NCBI GenBank assembly: GCA_013374835.1 | Contig: CP055307.1 | Span: forward strand, 279,315-343,314 | Length of the DNA stretch: 64,000 nt | Direction of reading: 5' to 3' | Source of the DNA: Candidatus Woesebacteria bacterium | GTDB lineage: Bacteria; Patescibacteriota; Microgenomatia; UBA8517 | In this document: positions 9,023-35,434 of the stretch, piece by piece | Numbering within the stretch: position 1 is the first letter of the stretch | Layout: every line of letters starts with the position of its first letter | Program-made: the position numbers and the translations under genes | Notes under the pieces: model-generated | Databases searched by the model: none | What the model was told of the DNA's origin: nothing | What the model saw: the letters and a program-made list of their open reading frames with translations, nothing else

Positions 9023-10879
9023 TTAGAGTATGTCGTTAATATCGTTAAAGTCGTATCTATGGGAATAGCCAGAATTATCTGATGTGTTTAATAGGTTTTC
9101 TGGTATATCCGAAAGAAAACGACTTGGAGGATTGCTTGTTTTTTGTCCGAAATAGAGCCTTTGTTGAGCGTATGTGAGAAATAAGATTTCTTTTGCTCTT
9201 GTTATACCTACGTATGCGAGCCTTCTTTCCTCTTCCAATTGTGCTGGGTCAAAAAGCGACCTTGAGTGTGGGAAAAGGCCTTCTTCAAGACCAGTTATGA
9301 ATATAACGGGAAATTCAAGTCCTTTTGCTGCGTGTAGAGTCATGAGAGTGATTAATGATTGATGTTTTGTATCTGATGATTGATGGAGTGATTTGGAGGT
9401 CGAGAGTTGTTCGGCCTCAACTAAGGCTACGTTTTCCAAAAACTCATCGATGTTTTGAAATTCAGCCGCAACAGAACGCAGCTCCTTTATATTTTCCAGC
9501 CTAGCAAAATTTTCATCCGTTTCTTGGGCAAATTTTGAAAGATAATCAGTTTTGTTAAGTGTTTTGTCCATAATTTCCAGAGTAGTTAATTTTTGTGTAT
9601 CTAGACTTTTTTGGAGCAAGAGAAGGTTTTGTGTCCTTTTTTTCCCAGTTTTGAGTGCTCTTTTTAGGGACACAGGATCTTTAGGATTAATTATTAGTCT
9701 TAAATAAGAGATGATATCTTTTATTTCTGTTCTATCGTAGAATCGTATTCCTCCAATTAATCTATAAGGAATTCCATTTTGAAGAAGTGCTTCTTCTATT
9801 GTGCGGGACTGAGCATTGGTTCTATAAAGAATTGCAATGTCGCTGTAATTGTAGCCTGTGCGCGTGAGTTCGTTAATTTTGTCTACAATATAGCGGACTT
9901 CATCTTGTCCACTGTTTGCCCTAAAAAGTTTTATTTTTTCTCCTTTGGCGTTACGAGTCCAGAGTTTAAGAATTGGATGCGTGGTATTTTTGGATATTAC
10001 CGAGTTTGCGGCATTTAATATTGTTTGGGTGGAGCGGTAATTTTGTTCAAGATTTATTATTTGTATGTCGGGAAAATCTTTTATGAGATAGTTGATGTTT
10101 CTGTAATCTGCTCCTCTCCAACTATATATTGATTGCGAGGCATCACCTACTGCTGTGATATTTTTTCTGTTTCCAATTAGTAGTTTTGTAAGTTCATACT
10201 GAATTTTGTTTGTGTCTTGCCATTCGTCAATTAGAACTTGAGCTATTTTTTCCTGCCAAATATTTAGTACTTCTGGTTTTTCTTGAAACAGAGCTACTGT
10301 TTTGAGAAGTAAATCATCAAAATCTAACCCTCCTGCTTTTTTAAGATATTTTTCATATTCTACATATATTGTGAATACTTTTTCTTGTAATTCTCCATTT
10401 GCAATTTCAGCGTAACGAACCGGACTTAGCATTTGGTTTTTTGCGTCAGATATCTGTGATAGAAAGGTCTCGGGTTTGAAGTTGTCTTTGTTGAAATTGT
10501 GCTTTTCAAGGATGCTTTTAATAATTTCTTTTTGATCGGTTTGGTCGTAGATTATGAAATTTTTTGGAATATCGATTTTTTGACCGTCTGTTCTTAATAC
10601 TTTGGCGCAAAAGCTGTGAAATGTGCCCGAATATTTGGGTACATTTCCTGATAGTTTTGCTATGCGAAGTTTCATTTCATCTGATGCCTTATTTGTGAAT
10701 GTCAGAAGGAGGATCTGATCTGGGTTTATTTTTTTGTTTTTGATAAACCAAGCGGCTCTGTGTGTTAGGACCTTTGTCTTGCCGGAACCGGCACCTGCTA
10801 AAACAAGAAGCGCTTTTCCGTCGAAGGTAACTGCTTTGATTTGTTCCTTGTTAAGATTATTAATTAGCTTGTCTGTCAT
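9023..10879 (-). CDS. pcrA: ATP-dependent DNA helicase PcrA/UvrD
   Basis: N-terminus LNKEQIKAVTFDGKALLVLAGAGSGKTKVLTHR plus the later superfamily 1A motifs DEWQDTN, TLHAAKGLEFPVIFI and YVGITRAKE. 618 aa. Confidence 0.8.
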   Translation of the reverse strand: MTDKLINNLNKEQIKAVTFDGKALLVLAGAGSGKTKVLTHRAAWFIKNKKINPDQILLLTFTNKASDEMKLRIAKLSGNVPKYSGTFHSFCAKVLRTDGQKIDIPKNFIIYDQTDQKEIIKSILEKHNFNKDNFKPETFLSQISDAKNQMLSPVRYAEIANGELQEKVFTIYVEYEKYLKKAGGLDFDDLLLKTVALFQEKPEVLNIWQEKIAQVLIDEWQDTNKIQYELTKLLIGNRKNITAVGDASQSIYSWRGADYRNINYLIKDFPDIQIINLEQNYRSTQTILNAANSVISKNTTHPILKLWTRNAKGEKIKLFRANSGQDEVRYIVDKINELTRTGYNYSDIAILYRTNAQSRTIEEALLQNGIPYRLIGGIRFYDRTEIKDIISYLRLIINPKDPVSLKRALKTGKKRTQNLLLLQKSLDTQKLTTLEIMDKTLNKTDYLSKFAQETDENFARLENIKELRSVAAEFQNIDEFLENVALVEAEQLSTSKSLHQSSDTKHQSLITLMTLHAAKGLEFPVIFITGLEEGLFPHSRSLFDPAQLEEERRLAYVGITRAKEILFLTYAQQRLYFGQKTSNPPSRFLSDIPENLLNTSDNSGYSHRYDFNDINDIL

Positions 10880-22502: not shown

Positions 22503-22539
22503 TTGACACGGCTTAGCACTCATGGTATTTTACTGCTAA
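22503..22539 (+). promoter_or_regulatory. Sigma70-like -35 box (TTGACA, 22503-22508) plus a CIRCE inverted repeat (HrcA operator) at 22513-22539
   Basis: TTAGCACTC-atggtattt-TACTGCTAA compared with the CIRCE consensus TTAGCACTC-N9-GAGTGCTAA. The left arm is 9/9, the right arm 7/9 and the spacer exactly 9 nt. It ends 3 nt before the hrcA ATG. Confidence 0.75.
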
Positions 22540-25734: not shown

Positions 25735-25787
25735 TTAGCAATCATATTGATTGAGTGCTTAACAGGTGTGCATGAATTTGATACAAT
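25735..25787 (+). promoter_or_regulatory. Second CIRCE element (25735-25761) with an overlapping promoter-like TTAACA-17-TACAAT upstream of dnaJ
   Basis: TTAGCAATC-atattgatt-GAGTGCTTA: 8/9 and 8/9 to the CIRCE consensus with a 9-nt spacer. The -10-like TACAAT is at 25782-25787. Confidence 0.65.
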
Positions 25788-27814: not shown

Positions 27815-29212
27815 ATGTTAAAGACGAGAAACCCGATTGTAACTGTTTTGGGTCATGTGGATCATGGAAAGACTACGCTTCTTGATGCCATCAGAAAGAC
27901 AAATGTGGCTAATCGGGAAGCCGGAGGAATAACTCAGAGCATAGGAGCTTCAAAGGTTAATACTAAGCAGGGTGAGATAGTATTTATAGATACTCCTGGA
28001 CACGCCGCTTTTTCCGAGATGAGGCAACGGGGTGTGAAGATTGCCGATATAGCTCTTTTAGTCGTGGCATCGGATGATGGGGTTAAACCTCAAACGCAAG
28101 AAGCTTTAAGTTATATTAAAGAATCAAAAACGCCTTTTTTGGTTGTATTTACAAAAACTGATTTACCTACAAGCAATATTGAAAAATCTTTGGTTGAACT
28201 TGAGAAGTTGGGAGTATTTTTTGAGGGGCGAGGTGGAGATACTCCTTATATTTCTGTTTCAGCTAAAAGGCAAGAGGGTATTGAGGATCTTTTGGAACTT
28301 ATTAATTTGTTTGCGCAAGTAAATGAAATTAAAGGAGATCCCGATGGTGAGCTTGAAGGCGTTGTTATAGAGACTAGAAAGGATAAGCGTGGCCTTTTGG
28401 TTTTCGGTGTTATTAGAAACGGTACTTTAAGAAGAGGGGATGATATTGAATCTGGGGGTATACAAGCTAGAGTGAGAGGGCTTTTTGATGAGGGAAATAG
28501 GGCGGTTGAAAGAGCCGGTCCGTCTGATCCTGTTGCGATAATGGGTTTTTCTGTTTTACCAAGTGTGGGAAGCGAAATTAAAAAAGTTGATTTGATCGAC
28601 GAGAGGGAGAAGTATGTAGAAAATTTTAGCGGCAATGTCTTTGCTAAAGCTAAAGAGGAGCAAATAGCGGTGGTGATTAAAGCCAGCAGTGCAGGATGCC
28701 TTGAAGCAGTATTGGGAAGTTTGCCTGAGGACGTGATAGTTATTCGTGCCGATGTGGGTGAGATTAATGATGCCGATATTTTTTTTGCTAAAGCAGCTGG
28801 GGCAATGATATTCACTTTTGATGTAAAAGTGGGTTCTTTGGTAAAGAAGCTAGCTGAAACAGAAGGCGTTAAGATTGAGAGCTTTGAGATAATTTATGAG
28901 CTTATTAAGAGACTTGCTGAGATTGTTGATTCTAAAAAAAAGAAAATTTTGGGAAAGGGTGAGGTTCTTCAGGTTTTTCCTTATGAAAATAAAAAGGTTG
29001 CCGGAATTAAAGTTAAGGAGGGAAGAATTGCTTTAGGAGATACCGTCAAAATTTTAGAGGGTGAAAAACAGATTGGTATTGCCAAAATTATTTCTATGAG
29101 AAAACAAAAAGTCGAGGTGAAAGAGGTTTTTGTGGGTGAGGAGTGTGGATTAATATTTGTTCCACAGCTTGATTTTGATAGGGGAGATGTGATACTATCA
29201 TTAGGATCTTAA
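27815..29212 (+). CDS. infB: Translation initiation factor IF-2, minimal form (G domain to C2 only)
   Basis: [39 protein letters not shown]...DTPGH. Only 465 aa: the protein starts directly at the G domain. Confidence 0.85.
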   Translation: MLKTRNPIVTVLGHVDHGKTTLLDAIRKTNVANREAGGITQSIGASKVNTKQGEIVFIDTPGHAAFSEMRQRGVKIADIALLVVASDDGVKPQTQEALSYIKESKTPFLVVFTKTDLPTSNIEKSLVELEKLGVFFEGRGGDTPYISVSAKRQEGIEDLLELINLFAQVNEIKGDPDGELEGVVIETRKDKRGLLVFGVIRNGTLRRGDDIESGGIQARVRGLFDEGNRAVERAGPSDPVAIMGFSVLPSVGSEIKKVDLIDEREKYVENFSGNVFAKAKEEQIAVVIKASSAGCLEAVLGSLPEDVIVIRADVGEINDADIFFAKAAGAMIFTFDVKVGSLVKKLAETEGVKIESFEIIYELIKRLAEIVDSKKKKILGKGEVLQVFPYENKKVAGIKVKEGRIALGDTVKILEGEKQIGIAKIISMRKQKVEVKEVFVGEECGLIFVPQLDFDRGDVILSLGS

Positions 29213-30105: not shown

Positions 30106-30133
30106 TTGACAAGGGTTTTTTGTATGCTATTAT
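30106..30133 (+). promoter_or_regulatory. Sigma70-type promoter TTGACA-16-TATTAT for rpsO
   Basis: TTGACA at 30106-30111 and TATTAT at 30128-30133, about 60 nt upstream of the rpsO ATG. Confidence 0.55.
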
Positions 30134-30194: not shown

Positions 30195-30461
30195 ATGGCA
30201 TTAACTACTAAAGAAAAACAGATCATAATTAAAAAGTTTGCAAGAGAAAAGGGAGATACAGGATCTCCTGAGGTACAAATAGCCTTGTTGACAGAAAGAA
30301 TTAATAAACTTTCCGAACATCTTAAGCTACACAAGAAAGATTTTCACTCAAGACGCGGACTTTTAAGTATGGTTGCAAAGAGAAGGAGACTCTTGAGTTA
30401 TCTTCAAAAACGCGACGAAAATCGCTTTGTTGCTCTTAAGAAAATTTTGGGTCTGAAGTAA
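30195..30461 (+). CDS. rpsO: 30S ribosomal protein S15
   Basis: [57 protein letters not shown]. Confidence 0.95.
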
Positions 30462-32705
30462 ATGGGCAAGAAAATAGAGAAGACAATTGAATTGGGGGGG
30501 AGAAAATTAACTCTTTCTACTGGATATTTAGCTGGACAGGCGGATTGTAGTGTTCTTGCTCAGTATGGTGAAACGGTGGTACTTGTGACTGTTACCAGTT
30601 CAGATTTGTTTGAAGACCGTGGCTATTTTCCATTGAGCGTTGAGTATCAAGAGAGGCTTTATGCGGGTGGTCGTATAAAGGGTAGCAGATGGGTAAAAAG
30701 GGAGGGTCGTCCTTCAGATGACGAAGTTTTGAAGGGAAGGCTTATTGATAGATCCATAAGACCATTATTCCCAAAGGATTACAAAAAGGAAGTACAAATT
30801 ACCGTTACTGTTTTATCGGTTGATTTGGAGAATGATCCAATCTATCCTGCTTCTATTGCTGTCTCAGCGGCTTTGGCGGCGTCGAAGCTTTATTGGATGG
30901 GACCTGTGGGAGTTGTTTCCGTTGGAGTAAAGGACAAGGCTTATTTTTTGAACCCGCGTGAATCGGAAAGGGCTTATTCGGATATGGATTTGGTAGTTGC
31001 GACGACGCGAGATTCGGTAGTAATGATTGAAGCCGGTGCGAATGAAGTATCTGAAAAGGACATTTTGGGTGGAATTGAGTTTGCACAAAAAGAACTAGTT
31101 CACATAATTAATTTTATTGAAGAATTTGCAAAAGCGGTAGGAAATAAAAAAGAAAAGGTCGAAAAAGCGTCTTATAACGTTTCTTTAGAGAATCAGATTA
31201 AGAAAATTGTTGAGAAGGACCTTGACTCTTTGATTTTGAGAATGTCTTTAAAGGAGGGTGAATTTGCCGATTTTTTGAATCTTCAACAAGCGGTTTTTGA
31301 GTCCGTTGGTGAAGAGAGTAAAAAAGAGGCTGCTGAAATTCTTGATTTATTGGTGAAGCGGAGAGTAAGGGAAATGATTCTATCAGGCAAAAGACCAGAC
31401 GGACGGAAATTGGATGAAATTAGAAAGCTATCTTCCGAGGTTGGTGTGCTTCCCAGAACTCACGGGTCTGCCATTTTTACAAGAGGAATGACACAGGTTC
31501 TTACTGTGACTACATTGGGTTCACCTTCTTTGGGACAACTTATTGAGTCTGCAGAGGGGGAAGAGGAGAAGCGTTATATACATCACTATTCAATGCCTCC
31601 TTATTCGACCGGTGAAATCGGTAGAATCGGTTCTCCGTCAAGACGAGAAATCGGTCATGGGGCTTTGGCCGAGCGCGCATTAGAGCCTGTTCTTCCACTT
31701 GAGTCTGAGTTTCCTTATGTTATACGTGTTGTATCCGAGGTTTTAAGCTCGAATGGATCTACCTCGATGGCTTCGGTGTGCGGGTCTACCTTGTCCCTTA
31801 TGGATGCGGGAGTACCTATTAAATCGCCGGTTTCGGGGATAGCTATGGGTCTTGTGATAAATAACGAGAAGGAATATTCGATAATTTCTGATATTGCTGG
31901 GATTGAGGACTTTAACGGTGATATGGATTTTAAGGTTGCTGGTACTAAGAATGGAATTACCGCTTTACAGTTAGATGTGAAGACGCTTAATTTAACTTTG
32001 CCAATATTATCTAAAGCAATGGAGCAGGCAAAACAGGGAAGAGCTTATATTTTAGAATCTATGCTTAAGACTATTTCGGAACCAAGAGCAAAGGTTTCTA
32101 CATATGCTCCAAAAATTAAAACTTTGAAGATTGATGTGGAGAAAATAGGTGAAGTAATAGGGCCAGGAGGAAGAGTTATAAAAAAGATAATTGCCGATAC
32201 GGGAGCGGAGGTTGAGGTAGAGGACGATGGGACTGTAAACATAACCGGCATGACGGATGAATCAGTTAACAGCGCCTTGGAAAAAATTGAGGGATTGACG
32301 AAGGATGTTGTTATAGGTGAGATATATAACGGTACAGTGAGAAGAATACAGCCTTTTGGCGTATTTGTGGAAATATTGCCTGGCAAGGAAGGGCTTGTAC
32401 GCATTGGCGATATGTCAACAGAATTTGTTAAAGAACCGTCGGATCTTGTAGATGTAAATGATAAAGTGGACGTTCGGGTAAAAGAAATTGATGACATGGG
32501 ACGAATTAATCTTTCGATGATACTTGATCCTTTAAAAGAAAAAAGCAATAACTCGCGGGGTAATAGAAACGACAGAAGTTTTGACAGACGAGATTTGGGT
32601 AGAAACAGGAGAAGCGGGGGAAGATCGACACAAAGATCCGGCCCTCATTTTCCAGCAAGTAGACTAGTTTCTTCTGATAATAAAAAAGGTGGCTTTAGAC
32701 GTTAA
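30462..32705 (+). CDS. pnp: Polynucleotide phosphorylase with a C-terminal Arg/Gly-rich tail
   Basis: Two RNase PH domains, then KH and S1 domains. Tail is RGNRNDRSFDRRDLGRNRRSGGRS. Confidence 0.9.
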   Translation: MGKKIEKTIELGGRKLTLSTGYLAGQADCSVLAQYGETVVLVTVTSSDLFEDRGYFPLSVEYQERLYAGGRIKGSRWVKREGRPSDDEVLKGRLIDRSIRPLFPKDYKKEVQITVTVLSVDLENDPIYPASIAVSAALAASKLYWMGPVGVVSVGVKDKAYFLNPRESERAYSDMDLVVATTRDSVVMIEAGANEVSEKDILGGIEFAQKELVHIINFIEEFAKAVGNKKEKVEKASYNVSLENQIKKIVEKDLDSLILRMSLKEGEFADFLNLQQAVFESVGEESKKEAAEILDLLVKRRVREMILSGKRPDGRKLDEIRKLSSEVGVLPRTHGSAIFTRGMTQVLTVTTLGSPSLGQLIESAEGEEEKRYIHHYSMPPYSTGEIGRIGSPSRREIGHGALAERALEPVLPLESEFPYVIRVVSEVLSSNGSTSMASVCGSTLSLMDAGVPIKSPVSGIAMGLVINNEKEYSIISDIAGIEDFNGDMDFKVAGTKNGITALQLDVKTLNLTLPILSKAMEQAKQGRAYILESMLKTISEPRAKVSTYAPKIKTLKIDVEKIGEVIGPGGRVIKKIIADTGAEVEVEDDGTVNITGMTDESVNSALEKIEGLTKDVVIGEIYNGTVRRIQPFGVFVEILPGKEGLVRIGDMSTEFVKEPSDLVDVNDKVDVRVKEIDDMGRINLSMILDPLKEKSNNSRGNRNDRSFDRRDLGRNRRSGGRSTQRSGPHFPASRLVSSDNKKGGFRR

Positions 32706-32725: not shown

Positions 32726-33766
32726 GTGGAAGGAAATGAATTAATTACTTCATTGGAAGAAAAAATAAAGGCAGGTGATATCCCTGAGGATTTAGCTGAA
32801 AGTGTTTTGGCAAGACTTGAGCAGTTGGCTAAATTAACGCAGTCCCCTACCTTTTTGCCGGAGCTAGACAGACTTAACAGATATGTTGATTGGATTACAG
32901 ATCTTCCTTGGAATAAGAAAACGGAGGATTCACTAGATTTATCCCATGCTTCTGAGATTATGAATAAGAATCATTATGGCTTAAACCAGCTTAAAGATCG
33001 CGTGCTTGAATACTTGGCTGTTATGAAATTAAAAAAGAAAAGTGGTCAAAATATTGCTCGTGCTCCGATTCTTTGTTTTGTAGGTCTTGTGGGGACAGGA
33101 AAGACAACTTTTGCTTATTCGGTGGCAGAAGCTTTGGGGAGGAAAATCGCGCGAATTCCTTTTGGCGGTATGGGAGACCCCCTTGACTTGAGGGGTCAGT
33201 CGAAGCTTCATCCCGAGGCTGAGCCTGGAAAGATAATAAAATCACTAAGATCTACCCAGAGCAAAAATTGTGTTATTCTTCTTGATGAGATTGATAGAGT
33301 AACAGATGAAGGCAGGGCTTCGATAATGGGAGTTTTGGTGGAACTTTTGGATCCTGAGCAAAATAACGCTTTTACGGATCACTATATTGACTATCCTTTT
33401 GATTTGAGTGAAACGATATTTATTGCCACTGCCAATAATACGACAAATATTGCTACTGCTGTTATGGATAGAATTGAGCCAATACAAATGCCTTCTTATG
33501 TTGATGAGGAAAAAATAGTAATCGGACGCGATTACATTTTGCCAAAAGCTCTTTCGGAATCCGGCATTTCTAATGATGTTATTGAGATAGATGACACTGT
33601 TTGGTCACAGTTTGTGAGGCCTTTGGGATACGATGCGGGTATAAGAACTCTTGAGAGGACAATTAAGGGAATGGTTAGAAAAATTGCCAGAATGATAGTA
33701 GAGGGCAGGGGAGAAAAGTTTAAGATTACCAAGGATAATGTAAAAGAGTATTTGCCCACTTGGTAA
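32726..33766 (+). CDS. Lon-like AAA+ ATPase module with no S16 protease domain
   Basis: Near-collinear match to the Lon segment that runs from just before the AAA+ domain to its end: YVDWITDLPWNKK...HYGLNQLKDRVLEYLAV...ILCFVGLVGTGKTT...ILLDEIDR...LLDPEQNNAFTDHY...IATANN...AGIRTLER. The ORF stops where the protease domain would begin; the next gene (rnj) starts 13 nt later. Confidence 0.7.
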   Translation: MEGNELITSLEEKIKAGDIPEDLAESVLARLEQLAKLTQSPTFLPELDRLNRYVDWITDLPWNKKTEDSLDLSHASEIMNKNHYGLNQLKDRVLEYLAVMKLKKKSGQNIARAPILCFVGLVGTGKTTFAYSVAEALGRKIARIPFGGMGDPLDLRGQSKLHPEAEPGKIIKSLRSTQSKNCVILLDEIDRVTDEGRASIMGVLVELLDPEQNNAFTDHYIDYPFDLSETIFIATANNTTNIATAVMDRIEPIQMPSYVDEEKIVIGRDYILPKALSESGISNDVIEIDDTVWSQFVRPLGYDAGIRTLERTIKGMVRKIARMIVEGRGEKFKITKDNVKEYLPTW

Positions 33767-33778
33767 AAGGAGTGAATA

Positions 33779-35434
33779 ATGGATAGATTAAAATTTATAG
33801 CGCTATCAGGGACTACTGCTGTTACCGAAAACTTTTATGTTTATGAGTATGGCGGTGATATGATTGTAATTGATTGTGGGGTAGGTTTTCCGGATCCTGA
33901 AATGTATGGGGTGGATTTGGTGATTCCTGATTTTTCCTACATTAAGGAGAATTCTTCAAAATTGAGAGGAATTGTTGTTACACACGGTCATGAGGACCAT
34001 TTTGGTGCATTGCCTTTTTTGTTGCGGGAGGTAAAAGCTCCGATTTACGCTTCGAAACTAACTGCTGGATTTATTAAAGATAAGCTTGCCGATTATAATA
34101 TAAAAGATTTCGAAATTAATGAGGTTGATCCTGAGAAAGATACCCCTTTAGAGTTTGGAGTTTTTAAACTTACTTCTTTTCGAGTTTCCCACTCGGTGCC
34201 AGATTCTATTGCTTTTTTTATAGAAACTCCTGTTGGGAATATACTTCATGTATCGGATTATAAATTTGACTGGACTCCTGTTGATAATAAGCCGTTTAAT
34301 GTAAATAAAGCCGCATATCTTTCATCAAAGGGTGTGATGTGCTTGATGTCGGATTGTTTGGGCTCGACAAGTCCTGGATATACTGAGAGTGAGAGAAGGA
34401 TTGAGGATCGGATTGAGGATATTGTTGAAAAAGCTGTTGGGAGAGTATTTTTTACCACAATTTCTTCGAATATTTCAAGGATGCAGCAGGCCATAAACGT
34501 TGCAAGTAGGTTAAATAGAAAGGTTTGTATGGTGGGAAGGTCTGTAGTTGCCAAGAGCGATATTGCTAAGAATTTGGGTTATTTGCACTACCCTAATGAT
34601 TTAATGATTAGTCCTAAAGAAATCGGGAAATTCGCTAAAGATCGCATGCTTTATATTATTTCTGGATCTTACGGACAGCCTGGGAGTGCTTTATATAGAA
34701 CCGCCATGGATGAGCATCAGTTTTTAAAGATAGAGGAGGGCGATACAGTGATATTTTCCGGTGACCCTGCTCCTCCAGGGTCAAAAGCAAATGTGGACTT
34801 TGTAGTTGATAGGCTTTTTGAGCTAAATGTGGATGTTCATTATTACGATATGCAGGAGGACCTTCATGTTTCCGGACATGGAAGTCAGCAGGATATTCAA
34901 ATGCTTTTTGGTATAGTTAAGCCAAAATATTTTGTACCGATTGGTGGAACAATTAGGCATATGAGAGCTTACAGGCGTTTGGCTGTTGATATGGGGGCGA
35001 AAGAAAGCGATGTTTTTGAGCTTCTTTCAGGGGATGTTATTGAATTTACCCAGAATGGAGCGCGTCTTGGTAAGCGAGTTTGGGTGAAGAATGTCCTTGT
35101 TGATGGGCTTGGTATTGGCGATGTTGGCAATGTCGTGCTTCGCGACAGAAGGATACTTTCGCAAGACGGGATAGTAGTGGCTATAGTTCAGATAGATAAA
35201 GCAAAGGAGAAGCTTTTTGTAAATCCAGAGATAATAAGCCGCGGTTTTGTTTTTGAAAAGCAGACTAAGAATTTTCTTAACGACGCTTCGAAATTATTGG
35301 CTAAAAAACTTTCTTTAGTAAGAGCACGGGATATAAGACAGATAAAAAATGAGACAGTTGAAATTTTGGAACAGTTTTTTTTCCGCGAGACTGGAAGAAG
35401 GCCAATGATACTTCCTGTTGTTATTGATATTTAA
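33779..35434 (+). CDS. rnj: Ribonuclease J
   Basis: Metallo-beta-lactamase motif VVTHGHEDHFGALPFLL, beta-CASP and a C-terminal domain. 551 aa. Confidence 0.85.
   Translation: MDRLKFIALSGTTAVTENFYVYEYGGDMIVIDCGVGFPDPEMYGVDLVIPDFSYIKENSSKLRGIVVTHGHEDHFGALPFLLREVKAPIYASKLTAGFIKDKLADYNIKDFEINEVDPEKDTPLEFGVFKLTSFRVSHSVPDSIAFFIETPVGNILHVSDYKFDWTPVDNKPFNVNKAAYLSSKGVMCLMSDCLGSTSPGYTESERRIEDRIEDIVEKAVGRVFFTTISSNISRMQQAINVASRLNRKVCMVGRSVVAKSDIAKNLGYLHYPNDLMISPKEIGKFAKDRMLYIISGSYGQPGSALYRTAMDEHQFLKIEEGDTVIFSGDPAPPGSKANVDFVVDRLFELNVDVHYYDMQEDLHVSGHGSQQDIQMLFGIVKPKYFVPIGGTIRHMRAYRRLAVDMGAKESDVFELLSGDVIEFTQNGARLGKRVWVKNVLVDGLGIGDVGNVVLRDRRILSQDGIVVAIVQIDKAKEKLFVNPEIISRGFVFEKQTKNFLNDASKLLAKKLSLVRARDIRQIKNETVEILEQFFFRETGRRPMILPVVIDI

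Follow-up and report, generated by a model that had tools for sequence, protein, structure and literature searches.

An intact open reading frame in the window, the whole 64-kb stretch of DNA analysed here, lies between the genes for PNPase and RNase J and encodes a Lon-type AAA+ module that ends where the Lon protease domain would begin. What is a Lon without a protease domain, and is it a working protein at all? The comparisons described below lead us to conclude that this gene, which we call short Lon, very probably encodes a functional, non-proteolytic paralogue of Lon.

Overall organisation and relationship to LonA

The reading frame has 346 codons and a GTG start, and specifies a protein of 346 aa that is collinear with LonA residues ~250–580, a region comprising the three-helix bundle and the AAA+ module. 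Its start corresponds to E. coli Lon residue ~247, and it ends in the linker where the LonA protease domain begins.

32726..33766, + strand: short Lon-type AAA+ gene (NTD3H three-helix bundle, AAA+ alpha/beta subdomain, Lon lid)
32726..32935, + strand: residues 1–70, three-helix bundle equivalent to LonA NTD3H (helices 3–16, 21–36 and 43–58)

Pfam identifies an AAA domain (E 7e-18) and the Lon-specific lid PF22667 (Lon_lid, residues 278–329), with no match to PF02190 (LON_substr_bdg) in the protein. The TIGR00763 'lon' profile aligns over its positions 252–571 of 795 (E 3e-97) with a score of 326.9 bits, below the cutoff of 608 bits; divergent members of the same family score 293–302 bits. The closest solved structures are all LonA, headed by B. 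subtilis Lon (3m6a, E 3.5e-76) and followed by the Meiothermus, Yersinia and E. coli enzymes and human LONP1. E. coli Lon residues 253–579 align with short Lon at 37% identity. An AlphaFold2 model of the monomer, built from 18 family members (pLDDT 90.7, pTM 0.83), matches the E. coli Lon AAA+ construct 6n2i end to end in Foldseek, with TM-scores of 0.87/0.89, and also superposes on substrate-bound LonA and LONP1 protomers.

Searches of the window in all frames (tblastn, E. coli Lon queries) found no Lon N-domain and no S16 protease domain elsewhere in the 64 kb, and the same searches within ±10 kb of the short gene in 86 related loci found neither domain in detached form. The window-wide negative for S16 is meaningful, since the E. 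coli protease-domain query, used as a positive control, detects the protease domain of a CPR LonA (locus L092) at 3e-68. Nor does short Lon match the LonB/LonC/BrxL-type models TIGR00764, TIGR02902/3 and TIGR02653 at E <= 0.01; full-length LonAs match these models mainly over their protease domains. Membership of a defence system was also considered and dropped, PADLOC returning just weak generic AAA matches.

Four of the five defining features of LonA that we tested are absent from short Lon, namely the N-domain, the protease domain, the curated profile score and the pore-loop aromatic; the fifth, an AAA+ module with an NTD3H bundle and a Lon lid, is present. Databases at present call the protein either 'ATP-dependent Lon protease' or 'AAA family ATPase', the 'Lon protease' label being given by JGI and by one NCBI/UniRef record. 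That label is wrong: short Lon cannot be a protease and, with the peptidase domain absent, would be unable to degrade substrates. The original prediction, of an orphan Lon AAA+ module with intact Walker A and B motifs and no protease domain encoded nearby, is thus upheld by the profile, alignment and structural matches and by the empty searches of the window, and for the Walker motifs by the residue comparisons that follow.

The ATPase motor

Residue roles are those defined for Yersinia/E. coli Lon (PMC7239648), and their conservation was surveyed in 215 short-family sequences and 120 canonical CPR LonAs. The elements of the motor lie as follows.

33083..33109, + strand: Walker A GLVGTGKTT, residues 120–128 (Lys126 = Lon K362)
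33275..33295, + strand: Walker B ILLDEID, residues 184–190 (D187/E188 = Lon D423/E424)
33347..33412, + strand: pre-sensor-1 (PS1) beta-hairpin LDPEQNNAFTDHYIDYPFDLSE, residues 208–229, an HCLR-clade insertion and the most conserved stretch common to Lon
33434..33436, + strand: sensor-1 Asn237 (Lon N473)
33470..33472, + strand: trans-acting arginine finger Arg249 (Lon R484)
33644..33646, + strand: sensor-2 Arg307 (Lon R542), in the Lon lid

In longer form the Walker motifs read VGLVGTGKTT (residues 119–128) and VILLDEID (residues 183–190). The equivalents of K362, T363, D423, E424, N473, R484 and R542 are each conserved in 100% of the 215 short-family members. All seven catalytic residues and the PS1 insertion, the marks of an HCLR-clade AAA+ protein, are therefore present in short Lon. 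The hairpin (LDPEQN..F.DHY.D.P.DLS) aligns without gaps to Lon 444–464 and is modelled with high confidence; the equivalent of the bridging Glu447 is conserved at 61%. Two aromatics of the NTD3H bundle, Lon Y294 and W297, which provide its coupling to the PS1 beta-hairpin (PMC7239648), have Y53 and W56 as their counterparts in short Lon and are kept in 97% and 94% of the short family respectively.

Conservation of the trans arginine finger implies an oligomeric ring ATPase, and from these residues we infer that short Lon would assemble into a Lon-like hexameric ring and hydrolyse ATP.

Remodelled pore loops

The two loops that line the pore differ distinctly from those of Lon.

33191..33232, + strand: pore-loop-1 region RGQSKLHPEAEPGK, residues 156–169, equal in length to Lon RGHRRTYIGSMPGK
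33296..33331, + strand: pore-loop-2 region RVTDEGRASIMG, residues 191–202, with Gly196 at the canonical aromatic position

In Lon, Y398 and I399 form the aromatic/hydrophobic pair of pore loop 1 that grips the substrate (PMC7239648). Pore loop 1 of the short family has the same length as in Lon (RG-x9-PG), and in short Lon Tyr398 is replaced by His162, Ile399 by Pro163, Gly400 by Glu164 and Met402 by Glu166. Across the two sequence sets the residues, as percentages, are:

Lon H394: CPR LonA H 100; short family Q 81
Lon R395: CPR LonA R 100; short family S 94
Lon Y398: CPR LonA Y 100; short family H 66, F 7, S 7, Y 5, R 5
Lon I/V399: CPR LonA V 98; short family P 72, A 19
Lon G400: CPR LonA G 100; short family E 75, D 21
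Lon M402: CPR LonA M 92; short family E 99
Pore-loop-2 aromatic: CPR LonA F 96, Y 4; short family G 62, A 23, S 7
Lon G434-D435-P436: CPR LonA each 100; short family A, S and I

In these alignments both pore loops have lost their aromatic or hydrophobic grips, and two nearly invariant acidic residues have been gained. The replacements are themselves conserved within the short family (E402 in 99%, S395 in 94%, I436 in 94%), which argues that the loops are selected for a different function and are not decaying.

Distribution, selection and phylogeny of the short family

In a collection of 5.8 billion proteins, the best 120 clusters all have lengths of 339–352 aa and 68–100% identity to short Lon and, where named, belong to Woesebacteria or Microgenomates. 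A scan of species-representative genomes gave 590 matches, with patterns that may also catch canonical Lons; the short form was verified in 80 of these loci. At least 80 species-representative loci thus carry it, from Woese-, Shapiro-, Gottesman-, Ames-, Curtiss-, Levy-, Davies-, Roizman- and Collierbacteria. All 80 have their stop codon −3 to +6 residues from the position of the short Lon C-terminus, and in none was protease-like sequence found near the short gene. More divergent members, with 37–59% identity, end at the lid or bear low-complexity tails only; Q/P-rich extensions occur at the N-terminus of some, and one carries a Dojkabacteria annotation.

Three independent assemblies whose proteins share 97% amino-acid identity give a dN/dS of 0.08 for short Lon, compared with 0.10 for PNPase and 0.05 for RNase J. 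Purifying selection on short Lon is as strong as on these two enzymes. A neighbour-joining tree of 331 columns recovers the short family as monophyletic in 20/20 bootstraps, on a long branch; its members have 37–39% identity to any LonA, and the CPR LonAs are 52% identical to other LonAs. The family is monophyletic and belongs to the CPR class Microgenomates, reaching Dojkabacteria.

The truncated architecture, and nothing more, might suggest a lon pseudogene in decay, a frameshift or an artefact of assembly, but ends this constant would then not be expected. Identical boundaries recur across independent assemblies from many studies, the catalytic ATPase residues are invariant, and rnj begins 12 nt downstream with protease-like sequence in no frame. 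Together with the low dN/dS these observations refute such an origin, to which we attach next to no probability. The proposal that short Lon might be a degraded Lon remnant therefore falls, as does the concern that correction of sequencing errors might restore a protease domain downstream.

Coexistence with full-length LonA

Two related genomes carry both forms. In one (L070), a full-length LonA of 820 aa (P0271) is encoded ~8 kb from the short gene on the same contig; it has the Lon N-domain, AAA+ module, lid and Lon_C, scores 878 bits on TIGR00763, above the cutoff, and has canonical pore loops (RGHRRTYVGAMPG and NDFRGDP). In the other (L092, a 699-kb contig), an 824-aa LonA lies ~7 kb from the rpsO-pnp-shortLon cluster, retains the catalytic Ser and Lys motifs DGPSAG and GGLKEK and likewise scores 878 bits; the short form here has 399 aa, and its AAA+ module shares 35% identity with that of the LonA. 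When the lists of short-form and LonA matches were compared, no contig beyond these two held both. Gottesman-, Pace- and Parcubacteria are further named sources of full-length LonA. Short Lon is thus a paralogue that coexists with genuine LonA in at least two related genomes, a point missed in the original prediction, of which the core claim holds.

The two genes also appear to be regulated differently. A CIRCE operator (2 mismatches) is found directly upstream of full-length lonA in both genomes. The window itself has 2 CIRCE matches against 0.03 expected, located upstream of hrcA and dnaJ. Control of the short gene by HrcA/CIRCE was considered and rejected, the operator being absent upstream of all short-Lon genes and from the groES<->short-Lon intergenic regions.

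Proximity to LonA raises the question of whether short Lon could be a regulatory subunit that co-assembles with the canonical LonA hexamer, or caps it, and modulates its activity. The linkage of the two genes in both genomes and the retention of the trans arginine finger and PS1 beta-hairpin as interface elements are in keeping with this. The low identity between the co-resident AAA+ modules, the presence of CIRCE on lonA only, and the lack of a protease domain in short Lon speak against it, and we consider the idea improbable. The protease domain contributes much of the stability of the LonA hexamer.

A second possibility is that short Lon is the unfoldase half of a split protease and hands substrates to a peptidase whose gene lies at another place in the genome, as ClpX does for ClpP or HslU for HslV. 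The motor and the NTD3H portal are intact, and the protein ends exactly at the linker between the AAA+ and protease domains of LonA, as such a division would require. Set against this are the negative searches for S16 and N-domains in the window and beside the gene in 86 loci, the protease-domain query being one of proven sensitivity; the loss of the aromatic pore-loop residues used for Lon translocation; and the complete LonA already available in related genomes. A comparable split Lon was not found in the open full-text literature. A partnership with a separate peptidase, one of the options first raised for this gene, accordingly receives little credence from us.

Genomic context

On the + strand of the window the gene order is murJ, hrcA, grpE, dnaK, dnaJ, nusA, infB, a conserved gene of unknown function, rpsO, pnp, short Lon, rnj, ftsK and a RodZ-like gene. 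The immediate neighbourhood is:

30106..30133, + strand: sigma-70-like promoter match TTGACA-16-TATTAT with TG (11/12), just upstream of rpsO
30195..30461, + strand: rpsO (ribosomal protein S15)
30462..32705, + strand: pnp (PNPase, 747 aa, Arg-rich C-terminal tail), ending 20 nt before the short Lon gene
33779..35434, + strand: rnj (RNase J), starting 12 nt past the short Lon stop

The promoter match is the best in the region and, on its agreement with the consensus alone, is a candidate promoter for rpsO-pnp-shortLon-rnj. No terminator-like site was seen on the + strand from rpsO to the end of rnj, and an Rfam scan of the 64-kb window found no RNA families. The most likely arrangement in this genome is a constitutive transcript that short Lon shares with rpsO, pnp and rnj.

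Among the 80 species loci, 47 of the 61 with enough flanking sequence have pnp as the immediate upstream neighbour in the same orientation, and 50 of 62 informative cases have rnj no more than 3.6 kb downstream; the stretch between short Lon and rnj often contains an inserted uracil-DNA glycosylase gene (udg). The neighbours that could be identified are rpsO, pnp, rnj, udg, ftsK or groES/groEL. Even in a member of 42% identity an rpsO-pnp...X...ftsK-rodZ backbone is recognisable, with a 4.5-kb insertion and with rnj absent. The rpsO-pnp...ftsK backbone is ancestral synteny. Other divergent members adjoin M16 and M23 peptidases or unrelated genes.

In one subclade (11 loci and P0139/P0391) the short gene is instead head-to-head with groES-groEL, and in 6 of 10 such loci it is adjoined by a convergent gene for an RNase H-like protein (PF04308). 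We had considered the groESL adjacency as recurrent evidence for a chaperone role and dropped it, because the tree places these loci and P0139 in a single clade and the arrangement therefore counts as one rearrangement. The subclade also has a conserved TTGTCAAG...TCTGCTAA element, a candidate leaderless promoter or operator.

This context invites the view that short Lon is an accessory ATPase of RNA decay, working with PNPase and RNase J to remodel ribonucleoprotein substrates, or assemblies of the Arg/Gly-rich-tailed PNPase, in the role that DEAD-box helicases have in degradosomes. The frequent adjacency to pnp and rnj, the gaps of 20 and 12 nt with no terminator-like site between, and the RNase H-like neighbour in the groESL subclade are all consistent with it. 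So too is the pairing of acidic pore loops in short Lon with Arg/Gly-rich C-terminal tails on the PNPases of short-Lon lineages. The adjacency, however, looks inherited within one class and not the outcome of repeated convergence; udg and other genes frequently separate the short gene from rnj; the pnp/rnj context is wholly lost in the groESL subclade and in several divergent members; and an acidic pore is poorly suited to the threading of RNA. We regard a dedicated role in RNA decay as rather unlikely. What the context suggests is housekeeping co-expression with genes of RNA turnover and translation, with a secondary association with proteostasis; as evidence of function it is weak.

Comparison with related AAA+ machines

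The LonA enzymes (E. coli, Y. pestis and B. subtilis Lon, and human LONP1) have the NTD3H bundle, AAA+ module, PS1 hairpin and lid in common with short Lon, at 35–45% identity, and have the same kinds of Walker A and B motifs, sensor-1, arginine finger and sensor-2 at the same positions. They differ in possessing an N-terminal LON_substr_bdg domain, a coiled-coil and an S16 Ser-Lys protease domain (PF05362), all missing from short Lon, and in the pore-loop-1 Tyr/Ile and pore-loop-2 aromatic residues, whose places are taken in short Lon by small or acidic residues.

ClpX and HslU resemble short Lon as stand-alone HCLR-clade AAA+ proteins with no fused protease domain. They have aromatic pore loops and peptidase-docking elements and are usually encoded beside clpP or hslV, whereas short Lon has neither a linked peptidase gene nor aromatic grips. 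In spastin and katanin, basic pore loops meet the acidic tails of tubulin. Charge-complementary pore loops would be a feature in common with short Lon, by analogy only, as the polarity is opposite (acidic in short Lon) and these proteins belong to another AAA+ clade.

Mitochondrial Lon (LONP1/PIM1) offers a precedent for a Lon AAA+ ring that works without proteolysis. As reported (PMC8368198), LONP1 has a chaperone-like activity that is protease-independent and ATPase-dependent, its anti-aggregation function needing ATP hydrolysis and not protease activity. LONP1, however, is a complete protease whose pore loops are canonical and whose chaperone-like work comes as a second activity, whereas short Lon wholly lacks the protease domain and has rebuilt loops. 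LonC of Meiothermus taiwanensis retains its protease, has a degenerate, inactive ATPase and has been proposed to have a chaperone-type role (PMC13069640). Both are Lon-family members with one of two catalytic modules disabled, and LonC is the mirror image of the short family, which keeps the ATPase and is without the protease.

Proposed function

Taken as a whole, the explanation that we favour, and hold to be on balance probable, is that short Lon is a stand-alone non-proteolytic LonA paralogue that works as a remodeller or chaperone, driven by ATP and engaging its clients in a non-canonical way. The remodeller or chaperone mechanism, taken by itself, is offered more tentatively as something the protein may do. 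Of the roles first suggested for the gene, that of a stand-alone unfoldase or chaperone comes closest, with the reservation that the remodelled pore loops speak against an unfoldase of the canonical threading kind.

Generic unfolded polypeptides are probably not threaded hand over hand, because the grips provided in Lon by Y398, I399 and the pore-loop-2 Phe are lost and acidic residues are gained. Absence of the pore-loop aromatic does not in itself prove that threading is lost, since the NTD3H entry portal and the residues that couple it to the PS1 beta-hairpin are retained. Short Lon may instead engage particular clients in a different way, plausibly through charge, its acidic pore meeting basic segments. 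Given likely co-transcription with rpsO, pnp and rnj, as against the HrcA/CIRCE heat-shock operator borne by the canonical Lon of relatives, such clients may tentatively be sought in the RNA-turnover and translation machinery. Speculatively, the Arg/Gly-rich tail of PNPase would be charge-complementary to the acidic pore. A more specific extension, in which the Lon-derived pore, turned from a hydrophobic grip on polypeptides into an acidic one, would recognise disordered tails rich in Arg (the RGG-like C-terminal tail of the PNPase from the gene immediately upstream being an example), pull on them and so drive the ATP-dependent disassembly or recycling of RNA-decay or ribonucleoprotein assemblies, seems to us a doubtful one.

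Significance

Lon reviews (PMC9569914) describe all Lons as single chains that join an ATPase and a protease domain, a rule that the short family breaks. The open full-text literature yielded no description of a protease-less Lon from CPR or Microgenomates (subscription literature lay outside the search), and the short family appears, from its conserved motifs and architecture, to be a new and widespread non-proteolytic offshoot of Lon, with the biochemical function that we infer above. In at least 80 species-level genomes, this lineage has kept the Lon motor, discarded the substrate-recognition and protease domains and rewired the pore loops. It is a natural system in which the ATP-dependent, protease-independent (chaperone-like) activity of Lon is separated from degradation, and one that permits a test of what a Lon ring does without aromatic pore loops. 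For the CPR bacteria themselves, whose gene sets are very small, short Lon is one more conserved component, probably with a housekeeping role. If the acidic-pore reading is true, it would represent a previously undescribed kind of AAA+ machine in CPR bacteria, whose proteostasis and RNA-helicase repertoires are minimal.

Genes flanking the short Lon gene

In the window, the short Lon gene lies in the order rpsO-pnp-short Lon-rnj, and the following features precede it.

27815-29212, + strand: IF2, only 465 aa
29225-30085, + strand: conserved 286-aa ORF between infB and rpsO
~32517-32702: Arg-rich disordered C-terminal tail of PNPase (residues ~686-747), following the S1 domain

The first residues of IF2 already belong to the GTPase domain, and the protein is similarly short in relatives (461–478 aa); the usual bacterial IF2 N-terminal region is therefore missing throughout the group. 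The 286-aa ORF, which is found in most of the related loci, occupies the slot between infB and rpsO that is the usual place of rbfA/truB. It matches no Pfam family, and its PDB matches, to RecJ-like/NrnA DHH phosphoesterases, are all sub-threshold (E 0.2–0.6). Arg-rich disordered tails are also seen at the PNPase C-termini of related loci in other genomes (L011, L030, L032, L067, L070 and others), where they are often RGG-repeats, frequently have RR[FY] or RRPRR at their end, and in some Microgenomates reach about 100 residues in length. An Rfam scan of the whole window (1-64000) at the gathering threshold returned zero RNA families, with no tRNA, rRNA or riboswitch.

On the other side of the short Lon gene, many relatives carry an inserted gene for a uracil-DNA glycosylase (PF03167) before rnj, as in L008, L009, many other loci and the following two.

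L002:9051-9686: uracil-DNA glycosylase
L005:9164-9784: uracil-DNA glycosylase

No such gene separates short Lon from rnj in the window or its 97%-identical strains, in which the gap is 12–17 nt. A different neighbourhood surrounds P0148, a divergent 507-aa short Lon with a long N-terminal extension at locus L094. Its gene lies amid peptidase genes (L094:4779-7204 and 9529-10191): a pair encoding M16 peptidases comes before it, and one encoding an M23 peptidase follows after 5 nt. These peptidase neighbours, none of them S16, are a single observation.

The rpsO-pnp-short Lon-rnj-ftsK block, typical of Microgenomates, is also present in many third-party (TPA) MAG records labelled 'uncultured Gammaproteobacteria', 'Pseudomonadales', 'Bathyarchaeia' or 'Methanoperedens' (L009, L012, L017, L020, L022, L029, L075 and others). 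These taxonomic labels look wrong.

Regulatory elements

In the subclade in which short Lon is head-to-head with groES-groEL, a conserved element, TTGTCAAG(T/G)GGA-N9-(G/A)NCTGCTAA(C/T), lies between the two.

L061:9955-9981: conserved element, also present in L042, L044, L053, L058, L060, L068, L071, L074, L079, L085 and L095

The short Lon ATG begins 2–6 nt after its end, and in three loci its spacer is 14 nt longer. Its left part resembles a -35 box and its left arm has no match to CIRCE, the HrcA operator; its right arm is identical to that of local CIRCE variants (GACTGCTAA). Neither the window nor the loci with short Lon after pnp contain the element, which may be a leaderless promoter or operator.

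CIRCE itself was found with two mismatches at each of four sites.

22513-22539: window, at the hrcA start
25735-25761: window, upstream of dnaJ
L070:1781-1807: immediately upstream of canonical full-length lonA
L092:9949-9975: immediately upstream of canonical full-length lonA

The two window matches compare with 0.03 expected. That CIRCE stands directly before the full-length lonA of both L070 and L092, which are related CPR genomes, suggests that lonA is a member of the HrcA regulon in these bacteria.
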